From NCBI GenBank assembly GCA_001821395.1, contig MHLM01000001.1, forward strand, positions 32,001 to 96,000: 64,000 bases of DNA. Reading direction: 5' to 3'. The stretch comes from Candidatus Lloydbacteria bacterium RIFCSPHIGHO2_02_FULL_50_18 (GTDB lineage: Bacteria; Patescibacteriota; Minisyncoccia; Phycocordibacterales; UBA6899). Below the pieces are notes generated by a model, which ran no database searches, was not told the DNA's origin, and saw nothing but the letters and a program-made list of their open reading frames with translations. The translations under genes were made by a program, and so were the position numbers. Shown here piece after piece: positions 698-39,895 of the stretch (position 1 is its first letter; each line of letters begins with the position of its first letter).

Positions 698-775
698 TTA
701 CAGCCTCCATTATATCACGATATCTTATTTATGTAAAGTACCATTGCCGAATAGGCCCCCCGTGGCTTATCATGT

Positions 776-4516: not shown

Positions 4517-4552
4517 TTCCACAAATAGCAGATTTACGATATACTCAGTCTT

Positions 4553-5779
4553 ATGTTTGATGTGATGAGCGCGTTTTTCGATAAGCCTTTTTTCCATCTC
4601 TTGGGGCAGATGTATGACATTGCTGCAGTTTTGGCATTCATATGGGGGCCGCTCGTTGCTGTTTGGCTCGCGCAAAAACTTTGGCTTGATTATGTTCGAC
4701 TGGATTTCATTCGAAAGAATTACGAATTCATTCTTCTTGAGATCAAGCTGCCGCGTACGATCGACAAAACCCCAATGGCGATGGAACTCGTACTACAGGC
4801 GCTCCATCAGGGTGGTACGTACAATTGGTACGACAAATGGTGGCTCGGAAAAGTAAGACCATGGTTTTCTCTCGAGATCGTTTCGATCGAGGGGGAAGTA
4901 AGGCTCTTGGTGCGCACACCCTCAAAATTCAAAAAATTGATCGAGAGTCATATCTATGCGCAATATCCGGATATTGAGGTCGTTGAGGTGCAGGACTACA
5001 TTTCGCTTGCACCGTATCTTCATGAAAAGAACGAGTGGAGTATGTGGGGCTGTGAGTTTGCGTTGACGAAACCCGACCCTTATCCGATAAAGACCTATGT
5101 TGATTACGGGCTCGATAAGGCCGGAACAAAAGAAGAATTTAAGAGTGATCCGATTACCTCAATGATCGAATTTCTCGGTAGCATTGGACGAGGTCAGCAG
5201 ATCTGGATGCAGATACTCGTACAGGCAAACGGTGATCGATATGCAACGCCGGGAAAATGGTTCAAGAAGCACAATTGGAAAGAGGAGGGGGGGAGACTCA
5301 TCAAGGAGTTGCAGGCAAAATATTCCGGCATCGATGGTGCGAAACCCTCAAAGTCGGAACAGGAAGCGATAGCGGCCATTGAGCGCTCACTGTCAAAGAT
5401 AGGATTCGATTGCGGAATTCGCACTATCTATATTGCGCAGAAGGAACATTTTGACCCATCAAACATTGCGGGGATTACCGGTGCATTTCGACAATATAGT
5501 TCTCCGACCTTGAATGGCTTCAGGCCGAGTAACACTCCCGGATTTAGCTATCCGTGGCAAGATATCAATGAATGGCGGGAATCGAAGCAGAAAAGAAAAT
5601 TATTCGACGCATACGTTCGTCGCTCGTACTTTTACGCTCCATACAAGAAGACGCCGTTCGTGCTCAATGCTGAGGAGCTCGCAACGATCTATCACTTCCC
5701 CGGTGGTGTCGCGGAGACACCGACATTCTCGCGCGTCGAATCAAGAAAGGGTGAACCCCCGTCTAATCTCCCTATATAA
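4553..5779 (+). CDS. Conserved hypothetical protein with an N-terminal TM segment
   Basis: 408 aa with no recognised domain. A TATACT box lies 7 nt before the ATG, so the transcript is probably leaderless. It is packed 3 bp upstream of mltG. Confidence 0.55.
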   Translation: MFDVMSAFFDKPFFHLLGQMYDIAAVLAFIWGPLVAVWLAQKLWLDYVRLDFIRKNYEFILLEIKLPRTIDKTPMAMELVLQALHQGGTYNWYDKWWLGKVRPWFSLEIVSIEGEVRLLVRTPSKFKKLIESHIYAQYPDIEVVEVQDYISLAPYLHEKNEWSMWGCEFALTKPDPYPIKTYVDYGLDKAGTKEEFKSDPITSMIEFLGSIGRGQQIWMQILVQANGDRYATPGKWFKKHNWKEEGGRLIKELQAKYSGIDGAKPSKSEQEAIAAIERSLSKIGFDCGIRTIYIAQKEHFDPSNIAGITGAFRQYSSPTLNGFRPSNTPGFSYPWQDINEWRESKQKRKLFDAYVRRSYFYAPYKKTPFVLNAEELATIYHFPGGVAETPTFSRVESRKGEPPSNLPI

Positions 5780-8207: not shown

Positions 8208-8765
8208 ATGAAAAATGATCGTCTTGCATTTGTTGACCTTGAAATGACCGGGCTTGATCCGTTCCGCCATGAGATCATAGAGATCGGGATCATACTCGCA
8301 AAACAAAAGCAGGGGGAGGACGGAAGGCGGACATTAGAACTGATATCCGAACACAATATTCAGCTCATTCCGCTCTATATTGAACATGCCGACCCAAAGG
8401 GGCTTGAGGTGAACAAGTATCACTCGCGCGATTGGAGCCTTGCCGTTCCGCAAAAGGATGGACTGTCGCACGCTGCCGAACTCCTGGACGGTACGGTCTT
8501 CGTTGCGCAGAACGTCGCGCTCGATTGGGCATTCTTGCATTATGCGGGCGATAAGGTTGGTATCAATTTTGATAAGCTCGTACATTATCACAAGCTCGAT
8601 CTTGCTTCTATGGCATTTGGAAAATTGTACCATGACCCAAAGCTCTTTAAATTCAGCCTGCGTGAAATGACGGAATATTTTCACGTAGTCAATCAAGACG
8701 CACACACGGCGCTCGCCGATGCGCGAGCAACGTTCGAAGTGTGTAAAAAATTGCTTGCACAATGA
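8208..8765 (+). CDS. DEDDh 3'-5' exonuclease (DnaQ/epsilon-like)
   Basis: Exo I motif FVDLEMTGLDP and a C-terminal H-x4-D (HTALADARAT). Confidence 0.8.
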   Translation: MKNDRLAFVDLEMTGLDPFRHEIIEIGIILAKQKQGEDGRRTLELISEHNIQLIPLYIEHADPKGLEVNKYHSRDWSLAVPQKDGLSHAAELLDGTVFVAQNVALDWAFLHYAGDKVGINFDKLVHYHKLDLASMAFGKLYHDPKLFKFSLREMTEYFHVVNQDAHTALADARATFEVCKKLLAQ

Positions 8766-9922: not shown

Positions 9923-9962
9923 GTTCTTGCGGAAGAGGTTGCGCGTGCGGTATCATTCACCA

Positions 9963-10442
9963 ATGAACAGAACAAATATTGCTCTTTTTGCATTGCTCGG
10001 GCTTATTTTTTGCTTTGCATTTTTGATTATCAGCGATCGCGATGTGCGATCTGAAGGAGGGCAGGCGGACGATAATTTAATAGTAGCTACTGATACAACA
10101 AATATGAACACAGCGATCGAGGGATTACAGATAGACATTCTTACTCCGGGTACCGGAGCCGGAGCGGAAAGCGGGCAGACGCTGATCGTTGATTATACCG
10201 GTATGTTGACCGATGGAACTATATTTGATTCAAGTATTCCTCGGGGGCAACCGTTCCCCGTGAATCTCGGCAGAGGTGAAGTGATCAGGGGCTGGGATCT
10301 TGGTCTTGTTGGTATGAAGGTCGGTGAAAAGCGGAAACTCACCATTTCTTCCGAGCTTGCGTACGGAAAAGAAGGATTTTCCGGGGTGATACCTCCGAAT
10401 GCAACACTCGTTTTCGAAATTACACTAAAAGCGATACAATAG
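9963..10442 (+). CDS. FKBP-type peptidyl-prolyl cis-trans isomerase, membrane-anchored
   Basis: Signal/TM anchor followed by an FKBP domain (DYTGMLTDGTIFDSS…GWDLGLVGMKVGEKRKL…ATLVFEI). The ATG at 9963 was chosen over the overlapping upstream alternative start. Confidence 0.8.
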   Translation: MNRTNIALFALLGLIFCFAFLIISDRDVRSEGGQADDNLIVATDTTNMNTAIEGLQIDILTPGTGAGAESGQTLIVDYTGMLTDGTIFDSSIPRGQPFPVNLGRGEVIRGWDLGLVGMKVGEKRKLTISSELAYGKEGFSGVIPPNATLVFEITLKAIQ

Positions 10443-10447
10443 GGCAT

Positions 10448-10897
10448 ATGATGAAATGGCCATTCTTTATCGTACTTGCTATCTCCGGGGGAATTCTTTG
10501 GTATCTGTACACGAACCTCGATAATTCCGCTCTTACGTCGAACGGCACCGCTACGAGCGGAATACAGAGCGTTATCGCGGTCACACATTCGTACCAGGAC
10601 GGCGTGCATCGTTTTTCGGGAGAGATCAAGCTTTCTCATTCGTGCTATTCGATCGATACTCAGACGGTTTCGGATCCCAAGTCGGAAGATCGATTGGTCA
10701 TAAAGATCACGACGACCGATCATTTCCTTGAACGCTCTACCTGCGCGAAATTTTCAACGCGCTACGAGTTCCAGGTTATCGCAGAAGCTCCTAAGGATGT
10801 CGCTTACACGTTACAGGTCGATGGCAAAGAGCTTCCGATACGCACGAGCAACGTGGATTGGAATAATCCGAACGCATTTTTTGTGAACCCGCGCTAA
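10448..10897 (+). CDS. Hypothetical secreted or membrane-anchored protein
   Basis: 149 aa with an N-terminal hydrophobic segment and no known domain. Confidence 0.45.
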   Translation: MMKWPFFIVLAISGGILWYLYTNLDNSALTSNGTATSGIQSVIAVTHSYQDGVHRFSGEIKLSHSCYSIDTQTVSDPKSEDRLVIKITTTDHFLERSTCAKFSTRYEFQVIAEAPKDVAYTLQVDGKELPIRTSNVDWNNPNAFFVNPR

Positions 10898-11750: not shown

Positions 11751-11825
11751 CACAGACCACTTTTGTCTGCGGTGTATTTCCTGATGTGTTGTATTCATTA
11801 TGGGGAGAGGTATAATGGCAAGCAT

Positions 11826-12341
11826 ATGGAATTATTTGCAGTATCGCAGTGGGAGATCATTCTTCGCCTCACTGTTGCGGTTGTGCTTGGGCTTGCGGTG
11901 GGTGCTGAACGTTCACGCGTCGGAAAACGAGCAGGGATGCGCACCTATGCGCTCGTATGTCTTGGGGCCGCACTCTTTATTGTTATTGCGGGGATGGTTT
12001 CGTTCCAGTATGCGAATACCTTTGTGTTCGACCCGCTGCGCGTCGCTTCCCAGGTCGTCGTTGGTATCGGGTTTCTGGGTGCAGGGATCATTTATGTTCA
12101 GCGTCAGGTTCTTACCGGACTTACGACAGCGGCAGGTCTTTGGGTAGTTGCGGGAGTCGGTGCGGCATGCGGATACGGACTTTATGTTGTCGCAGCCTAC
12201 GTCACATTTCTGACATTAGTGATCTTTGAGGGTCTCTGGTATGTCGAGGAGCGTTTTATTCGTATCGCTCGAACAGATGTGGAAGAGGATTTTATTCAAA
12301 GTGCTACGCATAATCGGCCTCACCATGAAGAAGAAAGTTAG
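11826..12341 (+). CDS. MgtC/SapB family membrane protein
   Basis: MELFAVSQWEIILRLTVAVVLGLAVGAERS… is a typical MgtC N-terminus. Start set at ATG 11826. Confidence 0.75.
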   Translation: MELFAVSQWEIILRLTVAVVLGLAVGAERSRVGKRAGMRTYALVCLGAALFIVIAGMVSFQYANTFVFDPLRVASQVVVGIGFLGAGIIYVQRQVLTGLTTAAGLWVVAGVGAACGYGLYVVAAYVTFLTLVIFEGLWYVEERFIRIARTDVEEDFIQSATHNRPHHEEES

Positions 12342-14311: not shown

Positions 14312-14385
14312 GATGGCGACACGCGAGGGTTGCGGGGCCGAACTTTTTCGCTTTTAGTAAGATATTTTCGTATACTAACAGTGTT

Positions 14386-15855
14386 ATGACACGACTTTTT
14401 TTGGGGGCATTGAAATTCATTCTCGTCGTTATGGTATTTACCGCATCGTATCAGTGGTGGAGACCTCTACCCGATACGCTATTGCCGTTTTCGAATGAAT
14501 ACAATGTTCCGGATTCTAGCGTAAAATTTTTTGCAGACTATACCTACGTTGACAAGAATGGAGAACGAAAGACCGAACAAGAGATCTGGGATCGGGCATT
14601 TACGCTTATCGGCGGCGCCTCTCATTATATGCTGTTTGATCTTTCCCTTTTTAATGATTTCCAGTCTCAGGTGCCGGAAACAACGAGGGCTCTCTCTTAT
14701 GAACTTGCACAGAAGATAAGCGATAAGCTTTCCGTCGATCGACACATCGCCGTAGCACTCATTGCGGATCCTGTTAATACGCTGTATGGCGGAATGCTTT
14801 CGGCACAGCAAACAATATTAAGAAAGGCGGGTGTCGTGATCATTGAACCGGATCTCACCGTGTTTCGTGATCCAAACCTTTTGTTCTCATCGCTGTGGAG
14901 ACCATTCTTTTCATGGTGGGGGAATTCGACTACTGGCGGATGGCTTCCTCATCCCTACCAATCCGTGGGGAGTAAAATTACATTGCGCACCTGGCTTCAC
15001 GTACTTAACCTGAAGGCAGACGAACGCAATCTGTTTGTCGTTGATCAAACGGTGGGAAAAGGAGTGAAAACATCATCTCAAAAAATGGTCAGTTTCATAA
15101 CGTCCGCTGTTCTGGCTGACGGCGCAAGTGCCGATGGAAATGTCGCACTCGAGGTCCGTGACGGTATCTGGAAAAACGTCGTAGAAAATGAACGACGCCT
15201 CGCTCAAGTGTCCGGCAGAGCGATTGTGAGCTATGATTCTGCGTTGACACTTGATGAAACAGGCCCCGTTCGGGTTCAGCTTATCTCGGAAACTATGATC
15301 AAAGATGCGATACTACGACTGCTTGCGGGGGCAAAGCACGGTGACATGCTGCAGCTTGTGCTGCATCATTTAAGTGAGCGTGATATCATCGCGGCGATCA
15401 TCGACGCTTCCAATCGGGGGGCGATCATCCGCATCATCCTCGATCCCGGACTATCGGAAGCAAGATTTGACGTGTACGGTTTGCCTAATCGTCCCGTCGC
15501 CAAAGAGTTGGTCAACAAGTCTCTGTCGGGTATCACGATACGTTGGTGCGATACGCACCGTGAGCAGTGTCGGGCGAACTTTTTTTCCGGTCATTCCGCA
15601 TCGTCAACGTTTATGATGCTTGGTTCGGCAGATTTTACCAGAAGAGATTTGGACGGCTTCAATCTTACGACCGATATCCTCGCGTCTGCTGACGCTCCCT
15701 TCACTGCATGGAACGATGGAGCAAAATATTTTAACCGTATGTGGGACAATGAGGATGGATCATTTACGACTTCATACGATGTATATGCCGACAATACGCT
15801 CTGGAGATCTTCCGTGTATCGAATGATGGAGCGCACGGGCCTGAATACCTTTTAG
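14386..15855 (+). CDS. Membrane-anchored hypothetical protein, possibly a degenerate PLD-like fold
   Basis: N-terminal TM. The C-terminal segment HSASSTFMMLGSADFTRRDL resembles an HKD motif with K→A and N→D changes. The assignment is weak. Confidence 0.5.
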   Translation: MTRLFLGALKFILVVMVFTASYQWWRPLPDTLLPFSNEYNVPDSSVKFFADYTYVDKNGERKTEQEIWDRAFTLIGGASHYMLFDLSLFNDFQSQVPETTRALSYELAQKISDKLSVDRHIAVALIADPVNTLYGGMLSAQQTILRKAGVVIIEPDLTVFRDPNLLFSSLWRPFFSWWGNSTTGGWLPHPYQSVGSKITLRTWLHVLNLKADERNLFVVDQTVGKGVKTSSQKMVSFITSAVLADGASADGNVALEVRDGIWKNVVENERRLAQVSGRAIVSYDSALTLDETGPVRVQLISETMIKDAILRLLAGAKHGDMLQLVLHHLSERDIIAAIIDASNRGAIIRIILDPGLSEARFDVYGLPNRPVAKELVNKSLSGITIRWCDTHREQCRANFFSGHSASSTFMMLGSADFTRRDLDGFNLTTDILASADAPFTAWNDGAKYFNRMWDNEDGSFTTSYDVYADNTLWRSSVYRMMERTGLNTF

Positions 15856-17203: not shown

Positions 17204-17232
17204 TTGGCAACACGGACCAATCTGGTTATAAT
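17204..17232 (+). promoter_or_regulatory. Sigma-70-like promoter (TTGGCA-17-TATAAT) for alaS; probably leaderless
   Basis: Near-consensus -35 and -10 boxes with a 17-bp spacer. The -10 box ends 7 nt before ATG 17240. Confidence 0.65.
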
Positions 17233-17239
17233 CCTATCC

Positions 17240-19090
17240 ATGCAAACTATGCTTTCGTCATCGGAGATCCGCTCTCGGTTTCTTCATTTTTTTAAACAGC
17301 GGGGTCATGCGATCATATCGAGTGCACCGCTCGTTCCGCTCAATGATCCGTCCGTGCTTTTTAATACCGCGGGAATGCAGCCATTGGTACCATATCTTTT
17401 GGGTGAGCCGCATCCGGCTGGGGTACGCATTGTCGACTCACAGAAATGTGTACGCACGGTTGATATTGATGAGATCGGAGATAATACACACGCAACTTTT
17501 TTTGAGATGCTCGGAAATTGGTCCCTCGGTGACTACTTTAAAAAAGAAGCGATCAATTGGAGCTATGAATTTCTCACCTCAAAGGAGGATGGTTTAGGAC
17601 TTGATCCGAACAGGCTTTACGTAACCGTCTTTGGTGGTAACCAGGATGCGCCGAAGGATACGGATGCGCATGCGACCTGGACGGAGCTATTTGCACGGGC
17701 CGGAATTAAGGGTGAACGCATCTACTATATGACCGCCGATGCAAGAGGCAAGGAGCCTAACTGGTGGAGCGCCGGGGATTCTGGCCCCTGCGGGCCGGAT
17801 AGTGAGATGTTCTACGACGTGACCGGAACGTTAGATCTTGGCATGACAAAAGAAGAATATATGGCCGCCGATGATAGGCAAGACATCGTCGAGATCTGGA
17901 ACGATGTCTTCATGGAATATCTGAAAAAAGACGGGAGTGTGGTAGGGAAATTGGAAAAACAAAACGTAGATACCGGAAGCGGTCTCGAGCGCGTAACAAT
18001 GGTCGCTCAGGGAAAGAACAACATCTTTGCAACGGATATGTTTTCAGATGTGATGGAATTCCTTAACGGCAGATCTCCGGAGGGAGTCATGAGAACAAAA
18101 CGTATCGTTGCCGATCATATTCGCACCGCGGTTTTCTTGATAGGGGACGGTGTCACTCCTTCAAATACGGACCAGGGCTATATTTTGCGTCGCCTTATTC
18201 GTAGGGCGGTACGCTTTGCCGACGACCTTGGTTTGGCTCAAAAAAAAGGTGAAACGCGAAGTGATCTTTCTGCCGTTGCCGACATGTTCATCAAAAAATA
18301 TTGCGACGTATATCCTGTGCTGCTCGAACATTCGCAGGCGATATTCACGGAGTTGGAAGAAGAGGAGAAGCGATTTCGTGAAACGCTCTCACGCGGGATG
18401 CGGGAATTTGAAAAGTTGGCGACAAAGGATATTTCCGGGGATGACGCGTTCACCTTATTTTCTTCGTATGGATTTCCGTTCGAGCTGACAAAAGAACTTG
18501 CCGATGAAAAGGGTGTCGTCGTCGATGAGCTCGGTTTTTCCGAGAACATGAAAAAACACCAATCGCTCTCGCGTGCAGGTTCTGAGCAAAAATTCAAAGG
18601 AGGACTTGCCGATGACTCTGTCGCAACCATTCGACTTCATACCGCTCATCACCTGCTTCTGCGCGCACTGCAGCTTGTTTTGGGCCCCGATGTGCATCAG
18701 CGCGGGTCAAATATCACTCAGGAACGCCTACGCATTGATTTCGCACACGGAACAAAGATGACTGACGAACAAAAAAAAGCAGTTGAAGATCTCGTGAATG
18801 AGAAGATTGTTGAAAACCTGCCGGTCATCAGAACCGAAATGAATCTTGGCGACGCTGAGCTGCTCGGAGCCGAACATGAGTTCGGAGCAAAATACCCTGA
18901 TCGAGTCTCAGTGTATTCCGTAGGACCAAAAGGTGCGACGCGTGAAGATCCTCAGTTTGACAAAAGATTTTCAATAGAATTCTGCGGAGGCCCACACGTG
19001 AATCGCACCGGAGAGTTGGGGAGGTTTAAAATATTAAAGGAGGAGGCCTCAAGTCAGGGCGTACGTAGAATAAAGGCAATACTCGAATAG
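17240..19090 (+). CDS. alaS: Alanyl-tRNA synthetase, short form lacking the C-terminal DHHA1/oligomerisation domain
   Basis: Class II catalytic core (SAPLVPLNDPSVLFNTAGMQP…FFEMLGNWSLGDYFK) and an editing-domain HxxxH…C motif (HTAHHLLL…FCGGPHV). Only 617 aa. Confidence 0.9.
   Translation: MQTMLSSSEIRSRFLHFFKQRGHAIISSAPLVPLNDPSVLFNTAGMQPLVPYLLGEPHPAGVRIVDSQKCVRTVDIDEIGDNTHATFFEMLGNWSLGDYFKKEAINWSYEFLTSKEDGLGLDPNRLYVTVFGGNQDAPKDTDAHATWTELFARAGIKGERIYYMTADARGKEPNWWSAGDSGPCGPDSEMFYDVTGTLDLGMTKEEYMAADDRQDIVEIWNDVFMEYLKKDGSVVGKLEKQNVDTGSGLERVTMVAQGKNNIFATDMFSDVMEFLNGRSPEGVMRTKRIVADHIRTAVFLIGDGVTPSNTDQGYILRRLIRRAVRFADDLGLAQKKGETRSDLSAVADMFIKKYCDVYPVLLEHSQAIFTELEEEEKRFRETLSRGMREFEKLATKDISGDDAFTLFSSYGFPFELTKELADEKGVVVDELGFSENMKKHQSLSRAGSEQKFKGGLADDSVATIRLHTAHHLLLRALQLVLGPDVHQRGSNITQERLRIDFAHGTKMTDEQKKAVEDLVNEKIVENLPVIRTEMNLGDAELLGAEHEFGAKYPDRVSVYSVGPKGATREDPQFDKRFSIEFCGGPHVNRTGELGRFKILKEEASSQGVRRIKAILE
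19044..19090 (+). repeat. Copy 1 of a direct repeat, covering the last 16 alaS codons
   Basis: Pairs with 19154-19200. Confidence 0.8.
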
Positions 19091-19270: not shown

Positions 19271-19279
19271 TGGTATAAT
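19271..19279 (+). promoter_or_regulatory. Extended -10 (TGgTATAAT) upstream of the actin-like ATPase gene
   Basis: The box ends 6 nt before ATG 19286. Confidence 0.6.
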
Positions 19280-19285
19280 TTTCTC

Positions 19286-20482
19286 ATGTCGCTATTTCGC
19301 AGTAATAACAAAAACGGGCAGCACTTCATCATTATTTTCGACATTGGAAGCGCTTCGATTGGCGGTGCATTTGTAAGTATCGATTCGACTCGCACACCCG
19401 AGATCATTTTTTCTATACGTAAAGATATCCCATTTCAGGAAAAACTGAGTTTTGAGCGTTTTTTGGCCTCGATGATAACAACGTTAAAAGAGATGTTTGA
19501 GGTCATGCAAAAGGCTGGTGGGGGAGTAAAAGTAGATCAGGCATTCTGCATCCTTGCGTCGCCTTGGTATGCCTCTCAAACAAGACTCGTGCACTACAAT
19601 CAACCGACTCCATTCTTGGTCACCGAGAAGGGTCTCTCAAAGCTCATTCAAAAAGAGATCAGGCTGTTCAGGGACTCAAAGTTGTTTGAACACGCAAGTA
19701 TCGACAATGTGCTCCCCGAGATCATGGAATCAAAAAGTATCCAGATCAAACTTAACGGATATGAAGTGAGCGATCCCTACGGCAAGCGCGCATCGGAGCT
19801 GGAGATCGCTTTGTACATCAGCATGATCCCTTCAAATATCTTTTCATCGATCAGGGGTGCCATCACGAAATTTTGGCATTTACCCGATGTGCATTTTTCA
19901 TCATTTTCTTTGACTGCTTTTGATACCATTCGCGGCATCTTCGTCGACGAATCAAGTTTTTTGTTCATGGATATCTCAGGAGAAGTGACCGACATTTCGC
20001 TTGCGAGGGACAATGTGCTGCTCGAATCCATTTCGTTCCCCGCAGGAAAGAACATGCTTATTCGCGGGATCATCAAGGGGATGCACTCGACACCGACGGC
20101 GGCGGCTTCTGAAATGAAACTTTATTTGGAGGGAAAGTCCACACACGAGCATGCGAAGCAGATCGAGGAGATCCTCAGTGCGGAAACAAAAGAATGGAGG
20201 ATATTCTTTGAAGACGCCCTTGCTCAATTCGCATCAGAATTTCCAATTCCGAGAACAATCTTTTATACTGCTGATGATGATGTCACAAAGTGGTTCGAGG
20301 GTGCGATCCGTGAGGCAAATTTTATGCGTTTTTCACAAGAGGAAGGGCAATTCTTGGTACGTTCGCTCGGCAATGCATTCTTAAGCAAGTTCATTCAAGT
20401 GCTTGAACCTGACTTTCAAGACCCATTTTTGGCGATCGAGACGATATTTGCGAATAAGGTTACTACATTATCAAAAAAATAA
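19286..20482 (+). CDS. Actin-like ATPase (FtsA/PilM-like ASKHA fold), hypothetical
   Basis: Phosphate-1 motif (FIIIFDIGSASIGG), a second-domain motif (FMDISGEVTDISLA) and …ISFPAGKNMLIRGI. It cannot be assigned to FtsA or PilM. Confidence 0.6.
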   Translation: MSLFRSNNKNGQHFIIIFDIGSASIGGAFVSIDSTRTPEIIFSIRKDIPFQEKLSFERFLASMITTLKEMFEVMQKAGGGVKVDQAFCILASPWYASQTRLVHYNQPTPFLVTEKGLSKLIQKEIRLFRDSKLFEHASIDNVLPEIMESKSIQIKLNGYEVSDPYGKRASELEIALYISMIPSNIFSSIRGAITKFWHLPDVHFSSFSLTAFDTIRGIFVDESSFLFMDISGEVTDISLARDNVLLESISFPAGKNMLIRGIIKGMHSTPTAAASEMKLYLEGKSTHEHAKQIEEILSAETKEWRIFFEDALAQFASEFPIPRTIFYTADDDVTKWFEGAIREANFMRFSQEEGQFLVRSLGNAFLSKFIQVLEPDFQDPFLAIETIFANKVTTLSKK

Positions 20483-22506: not shown

Positions 22507-22620
22507 ATGCGCGTAAGAGCTTCAGTTAAAAAAATTTGTGCGAAATGTAAATCCGTCAAACGCCGGGGGACTATTTACGTCATCTGTGAGAATCCCCGAC
22601 ATAAGCAAAAGCAAGGCTAA
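22507..22620 (+). CDS. rpmJ: 50S ribosomal protein L36 (37 aa; below the ORF-track length cutoff)
   Basis: Translation gives [37 protein letters not shown]. It has the conserved position between infA and rpsM. Confidence 0.85.
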
Positions 22621-22632
22621 TTATTTTATTAT

Positions 22633-23013
22633 ATGCGTATCCTTGGTATCACCGTTCCGGAGAATAAACAATTGTGGGTAGGACTCACCGTCTTTTACGG
22701 TATTGGATTTATGACGGCGAAGAAAATTTTAAAAGAGGCCGGTGTTCCTGAGACAAAAAAGCCTGCGGACATATCGACAGAAGAAGAAGCAAAGATCCGT
22801 AAGCAGATTGAAGGAATGACAATCGAGGGTGATCTCAAGCGCGAGAAGGCTGCGAACATTAAGCGCCTTAAAGATATCAAATCATACAGAGGTTCACGTC
22901 ACACGCGCGGACTTCCGTCACGAGGACAGCGCACAAAGACCAATTCCCGTACCGTAAGAGGAAATGTACGAAAGACGATGGGCAGCGGTCGACGCAAGCT
23001 CGAAAAGAAATAA
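22633..23013 (+). CDS. rpsM: 30S ribosomal protein S13
   Basis: MRILGITVPENKQLWVGLTVFYGIG…. Confidence 0.95.
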   Translation: MRILGITVPENKQLWVGLTVFYGIGFMTAKKILKEAGVPETKKPADISTEEEAKIRKQIEGMTIEGDLKREKAANIKRLKDIKSYRGSRHTRGLPSRGQRTKTNSRTVRGNVRKTMGSGRRKLEKK

Positions 23014-23044
23014 TCAATGACATTAACAGCGTAAGCAACGAACA

Positions 23045-23479
23045 ATGGGTAAGAAACGAATAGTCAAAAAGGCGGGAGGCAGCGTAGATCAAGGTCTGAA
23101 AGCGCGGTCACTTTCGCGTGTGCCGAAAAAGAAGATCTCGCATGCGATCCTCAATATCCAGTCAACCTACAACAATACCATCGTCTCGCTTGCGGATTCG
23201 GAAGGAAAGGTGCTTATGTGGTCAACTTCCGGCTCACTCGGATTCAACGGGGCAAAGAAGGGGACTCCGTTCGCAGCCGCAAAGATTGGAGAGCTCCTCG
23301 CAGAAAAGGCGCAATTGATGGGACTGAAGTCTGTAGATGCGATCGTGAAGGGGGTCGGCAGTGGTCGCGAGTCTGCGATCCGCGCGTTCATCGCGAAGGG
23401 GGTTGAGATTACCTCCATCAAGGATAAGACCCCCGTGCCGCATAACGGACCCCGAGCAAAGAAACCCCGCCGCATTTAA
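23045..23479 (+). CDS. rpsK: 30S ribosomal protein S11
   Basis: …WSTSGSLGFNGAKKGTPFAAA…. Confidence 0.95.
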   Translation: MGKKRIVKKAGGSVDQGLKARSLSRVPKKKISHAILNIQSTYNNTIVSLADSEGKVLMWSTSGSLGFNGAKKGTPFAAAKIGELLAEKAQLMGLKSVDAIVKGVGSGRESAIRAFIAKGVEITSIKDKTPVPHNGPRAKKPRRI

Positions 23480-23500
23480 TCCTCACCAATCAAAGAACAT

Positions 23501-24127
23501 ATGTCTGATGCAAAATGTAAAATATGCCGACGTGCAGGAGAAAAACTTTTTTTGAAGGGTGATAAGTGCTTTACCGCAAAATGTATTTTTGAAAAACGTC
23601 CTACCCCTCCCGGAAAACCGATCAGTGAGCGCAAGCACCGCAGTATGGTGACCGAATACGGCACACAGCTGAAAGAGAAGCAGAAGATTCGCAATACCTA
23701 TGGTGTTTCGGAAAAGCAATTCCGTACCTATGTTATCAACTCGACCAGCGAGAAGGGTTCCCCGGTTGACCATTTATTTGAGAACCTAGAACGTCGTCTT
23801 GATAATGTCGTCTACCGACTTGGCTATGCCGTTAATCGTACTCAGGCCCGCCAAATGGTCTCTCACGGTCATTTCGTTATCGGAAAAAGGAAGATTACCA
23901 TCCCGTCATATCGCGTATCCACCGGAGAGGTGATCGTCGTTCGTGAGGGAAGTAGGAAATCTCCACTTTTCACTGGTGCATCCGAGAAATTATCGAAGCA
24001 TTCCGCACCCGCGTGGCTTTCAACCGATCCTGTCAAACTCACTGCTGAAGTTAAGGGTGTACCAAAGTACAGTAAAGACGCACTCAGCTTTAACGTTCAA
24101 TCCGTAATTGAGTTCTACAGTCGCTAG
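23501..24127 (+). CDS. rpsD: 30S ribosomal protein S4
   Basis: N-terminal zinc-ribbon-like KCKICRRAGEKLFLKGDKC and an S4 domain. Confidence 0.95.
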   Translation: MSDAKCKICRRAGEKLFLKGDKCFTAKCIFEKRPTPPGKPISERKHRSMVTEYGTQLKEKQKIRNTYGVSEKQFRTYVINSTSEKGSPVDHLFENLERRLDNVVYRLGYAVNRTQARQMVSHGHFVIGKRKITIPSYRVSTGEVIVVREGSRKSPLFTGASEKLSKHSAPAWLSTDPVKLTAEVKGVPKYSKDALSFNVQSVIEFYSR

Positions 24128-24209
24128 TCGTTGAAGTAGAAGTATTGTATAATGTTTTGTCGAGGATCTATCAAAAGCTATCGTTATTAAGCCATAATCG
24201 CCAATTGCC

Positions 24210-25184
24210 ATGCCTGACTACAATGTCGCGTTGCCATCGAAGCCAAAACCTATCCGCGAGGAGGGTTCTATGGGAGTGTACGAGATAGAGGGACTTTACC
24301 CGGGTTACGGTCATACGCTCGGAAACTCTCTGCGCCGTATCATCCTTTCTTCGCTTCCCGGTGCTGCGCTTACATCACTGAAGATTGATGGCGTTTTGCA
24401 CGAATTTTCCACGATCGAAGGGATCAAGGAGGACGTCATAACGTTGATCCTTAATCTGAAAAAAGTACGCATCAAGATGCTTACCGATGAGCCCCAGACC
24501 ATCACGCTTTCGCTCAAGGGCGCAAAGAAGGTGACCGCCGGAGATATCACGATCAACGGTCAGGTGGAGATATTGAATCCTGAGCAATACATCTGTGAAA
24601 TGACCGATAAGAATGCGGTTGTGAATGCAGAGATGAAAGTTGAAAAAGGACTCGGCTATCTTGCAAAGGAGTCGATTCAGAAGGAGAAGGTTGAGATCGG
24701 AACGATCGCGCTTGATGCGGCATTTACCCCTATTCGACGAGTCAATTACGAAGTGGAGACGATGCGTGTTGGAGATCGCACTGATTACAATCGTCTGAAG
24801 ATCACAATCGAGACCGATGGAACACTCACTCCGCGCTCGGCTGTTGAGAACGCTATTGAGATCATGATTCATCAGTTGAAAGCGATCATCGGATTCAAGG
24901 AAGAGGAACTGATCAAGGAAGAGGTTCACGAGGTCACGGAGGAGTCCCATGAATCGACGGAGGGTGAGGGTGGAGTGGATACGGAGTTCTTGAAAACTCG
25001 CATCGACTCGCTTGATCTTTCTGCCCGAACCCAGAACGCACTCACCGGAGCAAATATCCGTACCGTAGGAGGGCTTGTTCGTAAAAAGGAAGAGGATCTC
25101 ATGGACCTCGACGGACTCGGAGAGAAAGGAGTCCAGGAGATCAAGCGCGCCCTATCGAACTTCGGCGTCACCCTAAAACAATAA
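24210..25184 (+). CDS. rpoA: DNA-directed RNA polymerase alpha subunit
   Basis: Alpha N-terminal domain and C-terminal domain, joined by an acidic linker. Confidence 0.95.
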   Translation: MPDYNVALPSKPKPIREEGSMGVYEIEGLYPGYGHTLGNSLRRIILSSLPGAALTSLKIDGVLHEFSTIEGIKEDVITLILNLKKVRIKMLTDEPQTITLSLKGAKKVTAGDITINGQVEILNPEQYICEMTDKNAVVNAEMKVEKGLGYLAKESIQKEKVEIGTIALDAAFTPIRRVNYEVETMRVGDRTDYNRLKITIETDGTLTPRSAVENAIEIMIHQLKAIIGFKEEELIKEEVHEVTEESHESTEGEGGVDTEFLKTRIDSLDLSARTQNALTGANIRTVGGLVRKKEEDLMDLDGLGEKGVQEIKRALSNFGVTLKQ

Positions 25185-25219
25185 TAGCGATTAACCAGTA
25201 GTCATTACCAAACACGCGT

Positions 25220-25579
25220 ATGAGACATCACAACAAAAACAAGAAATTCGGACGACAGGCAGGAGTACGTGAGGCACTCATGCGCTCTTTGGTGCTTTCG
25301 CTCTTGACGCATGAGAAGATAATGACTTCAGAGGCAAAGGCTAAGGCGCTTCGACCAATGGTTGAAAAGATGATCACCAAGGCTCGTGAGGGCGGAATAC
25401 CGGTGGTTCGTCTCATCAAGTCACGTCTGTACAACAACACCGATATCACCAACAAGCTCGTGAAGGAGATCGCCCCAAGATACAAAGACCGAAAGGGAGG
25501 ATATACGCGTATCACGAAGATCGGTTCACGAAGCGGCCGTGGTGATGCAAGTCCGCTTGCGACGATCGAACTTATTTAA
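25220..25579 (+). CDS. rplQ: 50S ribosomal protein L17
   Basis: MRHHNKNKKFGRQAGVREALMRSL…. Confidence 0.95.
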   Translation: MRHHNKNKKFGRQAGVREALMRSLVLSLLTHEKIMTSEAKAKALRPMVEKMITKAREGGIPVVRLIKSRLYNNTDITNKLVKEIAPRYKDRKGGYTRITKIGSRSGRGDASPLATIELI

Positions 25580-25604
25580 TATTTCTTACCAAAAGAACAC
25601 CATC

Positions 25605-25949
25605 ATGGAACATGTCATAGACGCAACAGGAAGAGCTCTCGGACGAGTCGCAAGTGAAGCGGCGTCGGTACTTTTGGCTAAGAACACCACTTCTGGCGCG
25701 AAGAACGTCGTTGCAAACGTCACCGTGCGAGTGAAGAACGCAAGCGCGCTCTCGATCTCAGACAAAAAGATGAAGCAAAAGACCTATCATAGCCATAGTG
25801 GCTACCTTGGTAGTGATCGGGCACTTACGCTTAGTCATATCATTGAAAAAAAGGGTCACGGAGAAGCGATCATTCGCGCAGTGAAAGGAATGCTCCCAAC
25901 AAATACACTACGGGACAAGAGGCTTAAACATTTAATTATTGAAGACTAA
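25605..25949 (+). CDS. rplM: 50S ribosomal protein L13
   Basis: MEHVIDATGRALGRVASEAASVL…. Start set at ATG 25605. Confidence 0.9.
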   Translation: MEHVIDATGRALGRVASEAASVLLAKNTTSGAKNVVANVTVRVKNASALSISDKKMKQKTYHSHSGYLGSDRALTLSHIIEKKGHGEAIIRAVKGMLPTNTLRDKRLKHLIIED

Positions 25950-25953
25950 ACGT

Positions 25954-26415
25954 ATGCCAACAGCAGCAACACCAAAACCAAAGGCAGCAGCAAAGCCCGC
26001 AACGAAGGCGGCTGCGAAGGGTACCGCAAGATACATTGAAGCAGTGGGTCGCCGAAAGACCGCTATCGCTCGTGTTCGGGCAACGGAATCTTCAAAGAAC
26101 TCATTCAAGATCAATGACCGTACTCTTGAGAGCTATTTTGGCACAATGGAACTTCAGTCAATTGTGAACGCGCCGCTTGATCGCGAAGGATTCGTCGTGA
26201 AGTATGCGGTGACCGTCAAGGTCGTCGGAGGGGGAACACACGCTCAGGCAGAGGCAATCCGCCACGGTCTTTCCCGTATCATCGTTATGGAGGATGCGGA
26301 ACAGAAGGCAGAGCTCAAGAAACTCGGATTCATCAGACGCGACCCTCGTAAGGCAGAGCGCAAGCATTTCGGGCTCAAGAAGGCTCGCAAGGCGTCACAG
26401 TGGAGTAAGCGTTAA
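25954..26415 (+). CDS. rpsI: 30S ribosomal protein S9 with a Lys/Ala/Pro-rich N-terminal extension
   Basis: …GGGTHAQAEAIRHGLSRII…RRDPRKAERKHFGLKKARKASQWSKR. Start set at ATG 25954. Confidence 0.9.
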   Translation: MPTAATPKPKAAAKPATKAAAKGTARYIEAVGRRKTAIARVRATESSKNSFKINDRTLESYFGTMELQSIVNAPLDREGFVVKYAVTVKVVGGGTHAQAEAIRHGLSRIIVMEDAEQKAELKKLGFIRRDPRKAERKHFGLKKARKASQWSKR

Positions 26416-26437
26416 TACACAGCGTATTTTATCGAAG

Positions 26438-26465
26438 AACTCCTCAAAAAGGAGTTTTTTGATTT
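26438..26465 (+). terminator. Rho-independent terminator after the ribosomal-protein cluster
   Basis: Hairpin aactcct-caaaa-aggagtt followed by ttttttgatttt. Confidence 0.8.
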
Positions 26466-26496
26466 TCATTATTTTTTTTGCTACACTCAACACATT

Positions 26497-27135
26497 ATGG
26501 ACGATAAACAACAAACTGGTTCTGACGACCGCACGACGCAAGACTTTCCATTAGGTGGAGGGGTAGATATCGTCGGAAGCGATGACGTTGCCGACGATGT
26601 ACAGATAGAATCATACAATGACGACGTAGACGGAGGCGGAGAAATGACTCCTCGTGATCACATCAAGCTGTTGCGCGAGAAACTGCGCGAGTCGAACGCG
26701 TTAAAACAAGAGTACCTCGACGGATGGCAGCGGCTAAAAGCGGACTGCGTCAATTACAAAAAGCGTGAAGAAGAGGGGAAGGGAGAATTCCTCAAATTCG
26801 CCCGCGAAGGAATCATTACCGACCTGCTTCCGGTGTTAGAGAGTTTTCATATGGCATTTTCGAACAAGGAAGCATGGGGTAAAGTTGACCCCTCCTGGAG
26901 GACTGGCGTTGAGTACATTCACACCCAATTGCTGCAAGTGCTTGCGGGGCACGGCCTCACTCAAGTGGACCCTATCGGTGCCGTATTTGACCCAAATGAG
27001 CATACTTCTATCGGAACGGTGCCGACAGATGATTCGTCGCTTGATCACAAGGTGGCGGAGGTAGCACAGTTGGGGTACCGACTTTCCGGCAAGCTGATCC
27101 GATCTCCAAGAGTGAAAATTTATACCCAAGGATAA
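26497..27135 (+). CDS. grpE: Nucleotide exchange factor GrpE
   Basis: GrpE coiled-coil and beta domain (DYLDGWQRLKADCVNYKKR…ITDLLPVLESF). Confidence 0.9.
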   Translation: MDDKQQTGSDDRTTQDFPLGGGVDIVGSDDVADDVQIESYNDDVDGGGEMTPRDHIKLLREKLRESNALKQEYLDGWQRLKADCVNYKKREEEGKGEFLKFAREGIITDLLPVLESFHMAFSNKEAWGKVDPSWRTGVEYIHTQLLQVLAGHGLTQVDPIGAVFDPNEHTSIGTVPTDDSSLDHKVAEVAQLGYRLSGKLIRSPRVKIYTQG

Positions 27136-27237
27136 CATCATGCAACCTTTTGGAGAAAGCGCAAGTAACAGTGTGTACTCAACGTAATGTTCAAGTTTAT
27201 TTAGCAATACTATTCATAAGCTCACATTCAAACATAT

Positions 27238-29127
27238 ATGGCAAAAGTACTCGGAATTGACTTAGGAACGACAAATTCAGCAATGGCGATCGTCGAAGCG
27301 GGAGAGCCGAAGATCGTCGAAAATATCGAAGGTGTACGAACGACGCCGTCTATTGTCGCACTCTCGAAAACAGGGGAGCGCTTGGTCGGTTTGACCGCAA
27401 AACGTCAGGCGGTAACAAATCCTGAGAACACGCTTTATGAGATAAAGCGCTTGATCGGACATAGCTTCGAAGAGGAGTCTGTGCAGCGTGATCAAAAAGT
27501 AGTCCCGTTCAAGATCGAACAGGGAGACAACAATGGTGTAAAGGTAAAGATGGGCGACAAGTCTTTCCGCCCTGAAGAGATCTCTGCAATGGTGCTTTCG
27601 AAATTGAAGGCTGACGCGGAAGCAAAGCTCGGCGAAACGATCACCGATGCCGTCATTACTGTTCCGGCATACTTCAACGATGCACAGCGTCAGGCGACCA
27701 AAGATGCCGGTACGATTGCGGGCTTCAATGTCCTTCGTATCATCAATGAACCCACTGCGGCGGCACTTGCATACGGCTTTGATAAGAAAAAGAACGAGAA
27801 GATCGTTGTGTACGATTTTGGCGGCGGAACGTTCGACGTTTCGGTACTTGAGGTTGGTGACGATGTGATCGAGGTCAAATCGACCGACGGTGATAGTCAC
27901 ATGGGTGGAGGTGATATCGACCAAAAGATCATGGCGTGGATCGTTTCAGAGTTTAAGAAGGAATCCGGGATCGACGTATCAAAAGACATGCTTGCGACAC
28001 AGCGCCTGAAGGAGGCTGCGGAGAAGACGAAACACGAGCTATCAAATATTCCGGAATCAGAGATCAATATCCCGTTCATTACCTCAAACGCCGACGGGCC
28101 AAAGCATTTGTTGCTGAAGATGTCGCGTGCCAAACTCGAAGAACTCGCGATGGAGTATGTCGATCGATCGATCGAGATCACCAAGCGTGCGCTTGATGCG
28201 TCCGGACTCAAGGTGGGGGACATCAATGAGATACTTCTTGTCGGTGGACAGACGCGCATGCCGCTCATGATCGCACGAGTAAAGGAGCTCTTCGGAAAGG
28301 AGCCAAATCGTACGATCAATCCGGACGAAGTCGTCGCTGTTGGCGCAGCGATCCAAGGAGGGATATTGAAGGGTGACGTGAAAGATATACTTTTGCTTGA
28401 TGTCATTCCACTTTCATTCGGAATCGAAACCATGGGTGGCATTGCTACGAAGCTGATCGAACGAAACACAACGATTCCCGCGTCGCGCTCTCAGATATTT
28501 TCAACGGCAGCAGATAATCAAACTTCAGTCGAAGTGCACGTCTACCAAGGTGAGCGCGGAATGGCCGCAGACAATAAGTCGCTTGGCCGGTTCATTCTTG
28601 ATGGTATTCCACCCGCACCGCGCGGAATGCCTCAGGTTGAGGTGACCTTTGACGTGGACGTTAACGGAATTCTCTCAGTGAAGGCTAAAGATAAAACATC
28701 AGGAAAGGAACAATCGATCCGTATCGAAGCACGCTCATCATTGTCCAAAGATGATATCGAACGCATGAAGAAAGAAGCTGAGGTTCATGCTGATGATGAC
28801 AAAAAGAAACAGGAGGCGGTTGAAGTAAAAAATATCGCTGAGACCCTCGTCTACACTGCAGAAAAAGCACTCAAAGATAACGGGGATAAAATTCCCGCTG
28901 ACATTAAGGCTGACGTCGAGGTAAAGATCGCTGAAGTCAAAAATGTCAAAGATGGTACCGATGTGGAGGCGACAAAGAAGGCAACCGAAGAGCTTTCCTC
29001 GCATATGCAGAAGATCGGCGAAGCAATGGCAAAACAAGCCAGTACCACGGAAGGTGCACCGCAGACACCACCGGAGGGCGGCGAGGCGGCGGGAACTGCA
29101 CCCGAAGGCACCGTGCACGACGTCTAG
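27238..29127 (+). CDS. dnaK: Chaperone DnaK (Hsp70)
   Basis: [15 protein letters not shown]…[14 protein letters not shown]… across the full length. Confidence 0.97.
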
Positions 29128-29225: not shown

Positions 29226-29254
29226 TTGTCAAACATCGTCGATATCTGTATAAT
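29226..29254 (+). promoter_or_regulatory. Promoter TTGTCA-17-TATAAT for dnaJ and the downstream operon; near-leaderless
   Basis: The -10 box ends 8 nt before ATG 29263. A weak hairpin plus T-run follows dnaK at about 29170-29195. Confidence 0.65.
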
Positions 29255-29262
29255 GCTCCCGT

Positions 29263-30339
29263 ATGGCAAAAGACTATTACGAAATATTGGGTGTAGGGAA
29301 GACCGCCACGAAGGAAGAGCTGAAAAAGGCTTTTCACAAACTCGCGCATAAATATCATCCCGATAAAGCCGGTGGCAATGAAGCAAAGTTCAAAGAAATG
29401 AACGAGGCATATCAAGTGCTCTCCGACGAGTCAAAACGCAGTCAGTACGATCAGTATGGGAGCGCATCTTTCGATGGCGGAGGCCCACCTCCAGGAAGCG
29501 GATTTAGCGGGCAAGGGTACGGAGGCGGCGGATTCGAGGGGGTTGATCTCGGTGATATCTTCAATGACTTCTTCGGTGCGGGGTTCAACGGAGGTAGCGG
29601 GCAGCGCGTCGAACGCGGTCGGGATATTTCTGTTGATATAGAGATCTCATTTGAAGAAAGTATTTTTGGCACTAAACGCAAAGTGCTTCTCGGTAAAACC
29701 TCAACATGCGACATGTGCCATGGATCGGGCGCAAAACCAGGTACGAAGCTTAAGAAATGCGTAACGTGCAGCGGAAAAGGACGCGTCAATGAATTGCGAA
29801 AATCATTTCTTGGTACGTTCTCTACCGTAACAACCTGCAATGTCTGTAAAGGTATTGGAGAGATTCCCGAGGAGAAGTGTAAGTCATGCTCCGGATTGGG
29901 CGTGGTAAAAAAACAGGAAGAGATCGAGATCAATGTCCCCGTCGGTATCAATGCCGGCGAAATGCTTCGCATGAGCGGAAAGGGTGAGGCGGTCTCACGT
30001 GGAATTGCCGGGGACCTCTACATCAAAGTACACGTGAAGCCGCATGCACTCTATCATCGTGAAGGGAATAATTTGGTGATGGATCTTGATGTGAAACTCT
30101 CGGATGCACTTCTTGGTGCAACATACAAGATCACGGCGCTTGACGGGAAGCAGCTTGATGTGAAAATTCCGGAGGGCGTGAAATTCGGTGACACACTTCG
30201 GCTTAAGGAAAAAGGGATAGCGAATTCCGGCCGCGGCAGAACGGGCGATATTCTCATTCACGTGAACATCAAGACCCCCACCCGCCTTTCAAGTAAAGCA
30301 AAGAAACTCATTGAAGAATTGAAACAAGAGGGGGTATAA
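29263..30339 (+). CDS. dnaJ: Chaperone DnaJ
   Basis: J-domain with HPD, a G/F-rich linker, and four CxxCxGxG zinc-finger repeats. Confidence 0.95.
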   Translation: MAKDYYEILGVGKTATKEELKKAFHKLAHKYHPDKAGGNEAKFKEMNEAYQVLSDESKRSQYDQYGSASFDGGGPPPGSGFSGQGYGGGGFEGVDLGDIFNDFFGAGFNGGSGQRVERGRDISVDIEISFEESIFGTKRKVLLGKTSTCDMCHGSGAKPGTKLKKCVTCSGKGRVNELRKSFLGTFSTVTTCNVCKGIGEIPEEKCKSCSGLGVVKKQEEIEINVPVGINAGEMLRMSGKGEAVSRGIAGDLYIKVHVKPHALYHREGNNLVMDLDVKLSDALLGATYKITALDGKQLDVKIPEGVKFGDTLRLKEKGIANSGRGRTGDILIHVNIKTPTRLSSKAKKLIEELKQEGV

Positions 30340-32463: not shown

Positions 32464-32468
32464 TTACG

Positions 32469-36670: not shown

Positions 36671-36715
36671 TATGGGCTATTCCTATGCCTCTATTTCTGC
36701 TAAAATTGCCCCAAT

Positions 36716-37812: not shown

Positions 37813-37939
37813 CGATTCATTTCGACAGATTTATCTGAAAAAATGCTACCATTGCGAATAGCAGTCATCCATGGGGTACCTGAGACGAATATCTGTGATG
37901 ACTTTGCATATAACCGATAATTCGCTACTATAGAACATT

Positions 37940-39442: not shown

Positions 39443-39895
39443 TTACGTATTAAGGATCGCATGGAACATTTCCCGTTTGGGGTCGGGAATAGGTCCATAA
39501 CCATTGGCGGACGTGTCTCCCAATTTCCAGCACAGATAGATGACCTCCAAAACCCCTACGAATGGGATGAGGAGCAAAAGAGACGCCCAGCCGGTTTGAT
39601 TAATGTCATGAAGACGACGTACGGTCATACCAAATTCGAGAAGTAAAAGCACGATGGCGACGAGCATTCCGATGAATGGGATGAACGCAAGTAGTAATGC
39701 GAGAGCGATAGACCCGACTGCCCCATAGAGATAGTTCTGTCGATCAATCCGTCCGTAAAAAAGACGTTTCCAGTGAAGATCTTTTGCCGCATTTTTGGCA
39801 TTCGCAAAAAGTCTATTAAGCTCATCTTGCACAGATTGCTCGGTGGTAGAAGTATTCTTTAAAACTTCGGGTACTTGTATTTGTGTATCGTTCAT
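39443..39895 (-). CDS. DUF805-family inner-membrane protein (YhaH-like)
   Basis: …RRLHDINQTGWASLLLLIPFVG…GDTSANGYGPIP matches the DUF805 signature. Confidence 0.7.
   Translation of the reverse strand: MNDTQIQVPEVLKNTSTTEQSVQDELNRLFANAKNAAKDLHWKRLFYGRIDRQNYLYGAVGSIALALLLAFIPFIGMLVAIVLLLLEFGMTVRRLHDINQTGWASLLLLIPFVGVLEVIYLCWKLGDTSANGYGPIPDPKREMFHAILNT

Follow-up and report, generated by a model that had tools for sequence, protein, structure and literature searches.

Promoter-like -10 elements placed 6-9 nt before start codons in a Candidatus Lloydbacteria genome, and the probable use of leaderless mRNAs

How are start codons found in a bacterium whose genes show almost no Shine-Dalgarno (SD) sequences? 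The question is raised by a 64-kb stretch of DNA, hereafter the window, from Candidatus Lloydbacteria, a lineage of Parcubacteria within the Candidate Phyla Radiation (CPR, Patescibacteria). At many of its genes, alaS among them (17204-17242), a hexamer resembling the -10 element of a bacterial promoter ends only 6-9 nt upstream of the ATG. Is this placement more than chance? Is the hexamer a promoter element or a signal carried by the RNA? What would it mean for the 5' end of the messenger and for the ribosome? We consider these issues in turn. The answer that we regard as likely, with the 5' ends deduced from promoter geometry, is that sigma-70 promoters, the majority with an extended -10, yield mRNAs that are leaderless or carry leaders of 1-3 nt.

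The sample comprised the window and 10 kb of flank on each side, about 83 kb with a GC content of 48%; relatives were sampled at about 20 kb per locus. The gene set consisted of the 58 open reading frames (ORFs) of at least 100 aa in the window, with the first in-frame ATG taken naively as the start, blind to any upstream motif. Hexamers were scored with a -10 position weight matrix (PWM) from Escherichia coli at a cut-off of at least 5 bits, and 982 internal ATGs in the window served as background. The left flank was dropped from operon-position counts and significance tests because of spurious ORFs inside a truncated 2923-aa GH94 gene; motif discovery and the promoter-centric scan described below used the merged 83-kb contig, left flank included.

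A hexamer above the cut-off ends 6-9 nt before the ATG at 14 of the 58 genes, against 2.55% of the internal ATGs (binomial p = 1.7e-10), and equal 4-nt windows placed 15-38 nt upstream of the same genes capture only 1-4 genes each. When non-first in-frame ATGs are allowed and the hexamer is relaxed to at least 3.5 bits at 5-10 nt, about 27 of the 58 genes qualify. The enrichment bears out an earlier sequence-only reading, which had described near-consensus -10 boxes 6-9 nt upstream of the start at many genes. Its term 'widespread' stands for roughly 25-45% of the genes in the window and fails for the rest, for example the ribosomal-protein operon and dnaK.

The signal resides in placement alone, since the total number of TATAAT hexamers in the window is that expected by chance (22 copies, 22.5 expected), as is the number of full sigma-70-like sites (25 compared to 23 expected in 20 kb). 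The two top sigma-70-like sites between 12 and 32 kb, each matching the consensus at 11 of 12 positions, are exactly those of alaS and dnaJ, and of the 17 highest-ranking sites across the window, five are followed by the ATG of a long ORF 7-10 nt downstream. Chance totals are, nevertheless, what would be seen if the hexamers were coincidental AT-rich sequence and the real promoters lay further upstream, giving ordinary 5' untranslated regions (UTRs); moreover AT content is higher in the 20 nt preceding starts than in the genome as a whole. This alternative, which the sequence-only reading had named as its own refutation, we consider very improbable. The peak at 6-9 nt is sharp relative to flanking positions of the same regions, the hexamers are accompanied by TGn and -35 elements, control genomes treated identically have no peak, and the position of the box is kept at alaS across genomes.

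All ten arrangements cited in that reading were recovered from the sequence, each hexamer and spacing as described (the first ten rows of Table 1). Pfam agrees with the names and N-termini of alaS, dnaJ, scpA, ftsW, murG, marR, trpS and corA. The label 'actin-like' given to the gene at 19286-20482 found no backing, as there is no Pfam match at E <= 0.01 and no sequence match to a PDB chain. The tRNA-synt_2c profile starts at residue 9 of AlaS, the J domain at residue 4 of DnaJ, Glyco_transf_28 at residue 3 of MurG and tRNA-synt_1b at residue 4 of TrpS. With the domains of the last three beginning at residues 3-4, a later alternative start would cut conserved domain sequence. The TAAGTT hexamer shared by murG and marR is weak, at 3.7 bits.

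Such N-terminal agreement also bears on whether the pattern arises from start calling, the stop codons within TATAAT, TAAnnT and TAGnnT serving to bound ORFs while the true starts lie elsewhere. A TAAGAT at 6812 is indeed the stop codon of the upstream gene, and some first ATGs are 0-2 nt from the box. But the called proteins have domain profiles that set in at residues 2-12, TATAAT boxes in the window most often lie 7 nt from the ATG, a distance that places the TAA out of the ORF frame, and the non-CPR loci (22 loci, 300 genes) are flat, as are the promoter-centric controls. We judge this the least probable of the alternatives; an artefact of ORF boundaries was rejected on the flat profile of identically processed control loci and the validated N-termini.

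Is the hexamer part of a promoter? Motif discovery by expectation-maximisation (EM), run without a prior motif on the 30-nt stretches that precede the starts, found tGnTAtAAT upstream of an estimated 54% of the 77 genes taken from this genome and, in 11 related CPR loci, TGaTATAAT upstream of 31% of 228, the sites in both cases peaking 6-9 nt from the ATG; no SD-like motif emerged from either set. A TGn at the extended -10 position precedes 43% of 88 start-proximal hexamers compared to 5% of 1548 equal-scoring intragenic hexamers. When the 88 are aligned on the box, the two TG positions are occupied by T in 57% and G in 56%, and a T, a T and a G stand out at 23, 22 and 21 nt upstream of it, which corresponds to a TTG of the -35 element with a spacer of 17 nt. 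Matches to the -35 element at 4/6 positions or more accompany 31% of the start-proximal hexamers and 13.5% of the intragenic ones; matches of at least 5/6 occur in just 11%. A TG one base upstream of TAnnnT, combined with a weak -35, is what defines a sigma-70 extended -10 promoter. TGn and the -35 element are sigma contacts with double-stranded DNA, which argues for a promoter rather than a ribosome site acting at the RNA level.

The same conclusion is approached from the other direction by a promoter-centric scan, in which every extended -10 box on either strand was taken without reference to gene calls and offsets of 0-30 nt were searched for a start codon at the head of an ORF no shorter than 100 codons. 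In this genome the ATG of a long ORF occurs at 6, 7 and 9 nt in four, three and three cases, and in the relatives at 6-10 nt in 14, 10, 4, 6 and 3, with almost nothing at the remaining offsets. ATG alone is enriched; GTG, TTG, CTG and ATC are flat after extended -10 boxes. In 22 non-CPR loci the scan is flat. A pyrimidine immediately precedes the ATG at 76% of starts, compared to 42% of internal ATGs, and this matches the Y(-1)R(+1) context of transcription start sites described across bacteria (PMC12641261). Position within the operon agrees, in that first genes of the window, those with a gap or a divergent gene before them, carry a box in 12 of 31 cases whereas internal genes do so in three of 25. 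Taken together the TGn, the TTG -35, the motif found de novo, the ATG specificity and the conservation at alaS uphold the view of the hexamers as true -10 elements.

That conservation is seen among the nearest AlaS relatives in a species-level genome collection, which share 46-60% protein identity and are almost all CPR metagenome-assembled genomes (MAGs). About 15 of 24 genomes keep a (TGn)TAnnnT 6-9 nt from the ATG of alaS, in sequence that is otherwise not conserved around the box. Across the sampled loci, a -10 at 6-9 nt is present at 25% of 192 genes in Parcubacteria-labelled MAGs (background 6%, SD 8%) and at 25% of 227 genes in MAGs auto-labelled Saccharibacteria (background 5-8%, SD 7%), with TGn at about 45% of the hits in both. 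The corresponding values are 4% of 267 genes in Clostridia/Bacillota (background 8-12%, SD 44%) and 7% of 192 genes in other control bacteria (background 4-5%, SD 36%), and no peak at 6-9 nt appears when the identical pipeline is applied to 300 genes from the 22 non-CPR loci.

Two further groups were encountered among these loci. Uhr- and Magasanikbacteria loci (L018, L020, L021, L023 and L079; 78 genes) have SD at 9% and a start-adjacent -10 at 8% of genes, and may represent a third initiation regime within CPR. Some MAGs labelled DPANN (Woesearchaeota and Micrarchaeia; L012, L016, L024 and L054) encode AlaS 49-52% identical to that of Lloydbacteria, as close as many CPR relatives. This could reflect mis-binning, mislabelling or gene transfer among ultrasmall lineages.

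If the boxes are promoters, do other genes rely on SD? SD 4-mers (GGAG, GAGG or AGGA at -18 to -4) precede one of the 58 starts and 13.6% of internal ATGs (p = 0.002), a frequency below chance. Applied to Clostridia, spirochaete and Chloroflexi loci, the pipeline reveals an SD peak at 5-10 nt before the start in 36-44% of genes, so the method is able to detect SD where present. Genes without a box do not turn to SD, as they would in the GeneMarkS-2 class termed group C; the single SD start and the failure of EM to yield an SD motif both argue against it. A contrast set consisting of the ribosomal-protein operon and dnaK (Table 1) makes the point. No member has an SD, and a nearby -10 occurs only at rpsM, where a weak TATTTT is found at a distance of 5 nt from the ATG. 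Over the last 20 nt ahead of these starts A and C are abundant and G is scarce (A 41%, C 25%, G 11%), as in caccaatcaaagaacatATG, and such leaders hint at a second, SD-independent mode of initiation for leadered or internal genes.

A search of the window, flanks and 85 loci with three conserved 16S rRNA motifs, allowing at most two mismatches, gave no match, and an Rfam scan identified tRNA-Pro only. Elsewhere, the anti-SD motif, CCUCC(U), went undetected in about half of Parcubacteria 16S rRNAs, with the consequence left open (Tsurumaki et al. 2022, PMC9297842).

Mapping in 49 bacteria places the centre of transcription starts 7 bp past the -10 element (PMC12641261). Applied here, that distance would make the A of the ATG position +1 when the spacing is 6-7 nt and leave a leader of 1-3 nt at 8-9 nt. 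With SD missing, no other ribosome-loading signal is visible. The proposed sequence of events is as follows. The sigma-70 holoenzyme would recognise TGnTAnAAT with a weak TTG at -35 and initiate at the A of the ATG or, at the longer spacings, at a purine 1-3 nt upstream. The mRNA would then possess neither 5' UTR nor SD, and its 5'-terminal AUG would be bound by a ribosome already carrying the initiator tRNA. Actinobacteria, Deinococcus-Thermus and archaea provide the analogy on which recruitment through a 5'-terminal AUG is proposed (PMC6028130, PMC3898074, PMC12340547, PMC3160421). Genes lacking a box may depend on re-initiation after closely spaced stop codons, suggested because many same-strand intergenic gaps are 1-10 nt, or on short, G-poor, unstructured leaders.

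Several observations weigh against leaderless transcription on this scale. The starts are naive first ATGs, and several of the best cases (leuS, corA and the S41 peptidase) require the second. At the 8-9 nt spacings of dnaJ, trpS, marR and grpE a purine occupies the canonical +1, which would give leaders of 2-3 nt. In E. coli, leaderless translation is weakened even by short 5' extensions. A perfect SD, TAAGGAGGT, is present in the left flank (locus L085, 8330, minus strand; full context ttaAGGAGGtagcATG, 8328-8350), about 0.9 kb before window position 1 and upstream of a 180-aa gene of unknown family. The 83 kb contain no other strong SD, and this one may be a chance match, belong to a recently acquired gene or be a sign that the ribosome retains its anti-SD. 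Finally, in the relatives the box is found at 36 of 126 first genes and at 37 of 89 internal genes that abut the gene upstream; in GeneMarkS-2 a motif spread equally over internal genes is a sign of a ribosome-binding site (RBS) rather than a promoter (PMC6028130).

The last point leads to an alternative in which TAnnnT acts in the RNA, as a non-SD ribosome-binding or AU-rich element on leadered mRNAs comparable to those of GeneMarkS-2 group B (Bacteroidota), by pairing with an altered 16S tail or by binding S1, with transcription starting further upstream. With SD missing, initiation needs some other signal, and the reported loss of anti-SD in some Parcubacteria (PMC9297842) would fit. However, the TGn and the TTG at -35 are double-stranded-DNA contacts of sigma with no known role in RNA, the conserved pattern is T-A-n-n-n-T and not a contiguous block suited to pairing, the enrichment is ATG-specific, and in the window the motif prefers first genes. 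The boxes at packed genes of the relatives lend this alternative some support, but TGn accompanies 10 of the 23 hits with an upstream gap of no more than 10 nt, the same frequency as in the others. Boxes at tightly packed genes with TGn intact indicate that many promoters are contained in the 3' end of the gene ahead of them, and the starts at 10448 and 32469 exemplify this in the window. We consider an RNA-level signal unlikely, although less so than either coincidence or a start-calling artefact.

Promoters that abut the start codon thus remain our preferred explanation, and how far does it extend? A broader proposal, which we advance tentatively and place a little short of an even chance, is that this CPR branch (Lloydbacteria and the sampled Parcubacteria-type relatives) has dropped SD pairing. 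A third to half of the genes would be expressed from their own ATG-abutting extended -10 promoters, including genes no more than 10 nt behind a neighbour, much of the transcriptome would be monocistronic and leaderless, and the remaining genes would use G-poor leaders or re-initiation. Branch-wide SD loss, if true, would match in function the loss of anti-SD reported for Parcubacteria 16S rRNA. Gene callers trained on SD would then misplace starts systematically in CPR MAGs, an example being the TTG called for alaS, which is part of a -35 box.

Start calls at individual genes are informative in this respect. NCBI begins AlaS at ATG 17240 (616 aa) whereas ENA, Logan and JGI use TTG 17204 (628 aa). 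The 827-aa LeuS of NCBI corresponds to the start at 782, and in the 829-aa form the match to the NCBIfam leuS profile sets in at residue 6. For the S41 peptidase NCBI gives 447 aa from 54223 and other callers 450 aa from 54232. In these three cases the NCBI annotation independently takes the box-adjacent ATG and other callers differ. At leuS, corA, the S41 and the M23 peptidase genes a later ATG lies 7-8 nt past the box, the first being too near to it or inside it. The CorA domain begins at residue 12 of the longer form and the real start is probably the second in-frame ATG, although all public annotations have 54317. Two NCBI MAG annotations of the M23 peptidase conflict, at 430 and 433 aa. 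Callers trained on SD appear unreliable for the Lloydbacteria lineage, and those that expect SD give wrong N-termini, with 12 additional residues for AlaS and two or three for LeuS and the S41 peptidase.

Table 1. Promoter-start units in the window, with the contrast set in the last row
Gene	Position (strand)	-35 (spacer)	-10 element	Distance to ATG (nt)	ATG	Remarks
alaS	17204-17242 (+)	TTGGCA 17204-09 (17 nt)	TATAAT 17227-32	7	17240	
398-aa gene, family unknown	19271-19288 (+)		TGgTATAAT 19271-79, extended	6	19286	
dnaJ	29226-29265 (+)	TTGTCA 29226-31 (17 nt)	TATAAT 29249-54	8	29263	
scpA	39981-39998 (+)		TGcTAATAT 39981-89	6	39996	
ftsW	43850-43864 (+)		TATAAT 43850-55	6	43862	
DUF8128 gene	4540-4555 (+)		TATACT 4540-45	7	4553	
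murG	45002-45016 (+)		TAAGTT 45002-07, weak	6	45014	
marR	56824-56865 (+)	TTGACA 56824-29, perfect (18 nt)	TGcTAAGTT	9	56863	
trpS	36698-36718 (+)		TGcTAAAAT 36698-706	9	36716	
corA	54291-54328 (+)	TGGTCA (16 nt)	TATAAT 54313-18	7	54326, second in frame	Box overlaps first ATG 54317
S41 peptidase	54221-54259 (-)	TTGACC (17 nt)	TGgGATAAT 54236-31	7	54223	
leuS	768-784 (+)		TATCAT 768-773	8	782	First ATG 776 just 2 nt from box
grpE	26431-26499 (+)	TTGATT (17 nt)	TGcTACACT 26479-87	9	26497	
ThiF-family gene	32453-32471 (+)		TGaTACAAT	7	32469	Promoter inside 3' end of upstream gene (gap 5 nt)
Hypothetical 149-aa gene	10435-10450 (+)		TACAAT	7	10448	Promoter within upstream FKBP gene (gap 5 nt)
FKBP isomerase	9951-9965 (+)		TATCAT	6	9963	Start of ENA/JGI callers
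mgtC	11811-11828 (+)		TATAAT	9	11826	Start in all public annotations
PLD-domain gene	14371-14388 (+)		TATACT	9	14386	
Class II (D/K/N) aminoacyl-tRNA synthetase	37903-37942 (+)	TTTGCA (17 nt)	TACTAT	8	37940	
DUF805 gene	39893-39933 (-)	TTGTCA (16 nt)	TAGAAT 39911-06	10	39895	Divergent from scpA
395-aa hypothetical gene	63947-63962 (-)		TAGAAT 63962-57	7	63949	
52-aa hydrophobic small ORF	48825-48841 (+)		TATAAT	8	48839	
M23 peptidase	47505-47520 (+)		TATCAT	7	47518, third ATG	
rpsM-rpsK-rpsD-rpoA-rplQ-rplM-rpsI and dnaK	22603-29127 (+)					Contrast set; starts validated by profiles

The S41 peptidase and corA genes, on the minus and plus strands, have back-to-back divergent promoters within a single intergenic region of 84-102 nt (54221-54328). 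A terminator-like hairpin (26431-63) follows rpsI and lies ahead of the grpE unit. In the left flank (locus L085, 8483-8505) the gene of the ychF GTPase has a TATACT 6 nt before its ATG; YchF is named as a regulator of leaderless-mRNA translation in a paper on CPR ribosome biogenesis.

Three other features of the window deserve mention. A 344-aa protein (3450-4484) matches sigma-70 region 4 at residues 15-73 and an RNA polymerase delta/HARE-HTH-like domain at residues 224-283, with sigma regions 2 and 3 missing, an unusual architecture for a transcription factor. On the minus strand at 51183-51414, a TTGACA and TATCAT separated by 18 nt (11/12, among the best sigma-70-like sites of the window) are followed by no start codon but by about 190 nt of non-coding sequence ending in a hairpin and T-run (ctcacgcgagtgag ttttt). 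This stretch has no Rfam match and a fold z-score of only -1.6, and may be an unannotated small RNA. At 49160-49400, TGTATAAT (49161-68) precedes about 200 nt without a convincing ORF or an Rfam match, and a 22-nt tandem duplication (ACCTTCTTTATGTGGGTCTCTG, two copies, about 49350-49397) adjoins the end of a convergent gene and tRNA-Pro.

The CPR make up a large share of bacterial diversity and their transcription and translation initiation are barely known. Promoters abutting the start, in combination with the lack of SD, provide a concrete and testable answer to how Parcubacteria ribosomes devoid of anti-SD find start codons. A leaderless model could improve start annotation for thousands of CPR MAGs, and constructs for cultivable Patescibacteria may need TGnTATAAT, 6-7 nt and ATG rather than a promoter plus RBS. 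In the full-text literature we found no paper on leaderless mRNAs in CPR, Patescibacteria, Parcubacteria, Saccharibacteria or Minisyncoccota, and a search combining Shine-Dalgarno with CPR names led to the study of Tsurumaki et al. only.

Comparisons with established systems inform on what is and what is not distinctive. The closest likeness is to GeneMarkS-2 group C, exemplified by Actinobacteria (Mycobacterium tuberculosis, Streptomyces and Corynebacterium), where TANNNT is likewise found 6-8 nt upstream of many operon-first genes and a quarter to half of transcripts are predicted to be leaderless (PMC6028130, PMC3898074, PMC3160421). The remaining genes of those genomes use SD at the same distance, whereas here SD is depleted, the boxes are mostly extended by TGn and, in the relatives, are equally frequent at packed internal genes. 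Actinobacterial group C genomes are also high in GC and M. tuberculosis uses GTG in addition; the Lloydbacteria DNA has a GC content of 48% and enriches ATG alone. Group C also includes the Mollicutes that use genetic code 4, with 30-60% of transcripts predicted leaderless (MetaGeneMark-2 preprint, 10.1101/2022.07.25.500264). These are similarly reduced and host-dependent but are low-GC members of another phylum and keep an RBS model for their other genes.

Deinococcus-Thermus presents a '-10 region adjacent to ORFs', with TANNNT located about 6-7 bp ahead of some 30% of ORFs (de Groot 2014; PMC12340547), and has been called the most prominent phylum in this respect; there the motif was demonstrated experimentally to be a promoter -10 giving leaderless mRNA and is a cause of mis-annotated start codons (PMC12340547). 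The proportion of roughly 25% obtained here, by a cruder method, is comparable. Deinococcus has a second motif, a GGAG RBS, for its other genes and the Lloydbacteria lineage has none. Bacteroidota (group B) share the genome-wide lack of SD and an A-rich, G-poor sequence before the start, as in the ribosomal-protein and dnaK genes of the window. Their motif, though, precedes every gene, is carried on leadered mRNAs and lacks promoter character, whereas here the extended -10 dominates. In archaea with leaderless genes (Haloferax and Sulfolobus, group D) most transcripts are without a 5' UTR and SD plays a minor part, but the TATA box, recognised by TBP/TFB, is positioned some 22-26 nt before the start and belongs to another kind of transcription machinery. 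The arrangement, then, is known from other phyla, in group C and Deinococcus-Thermus, and what distinguishes its occurrence in these CPR genomes is that no SD class stands alongside it.

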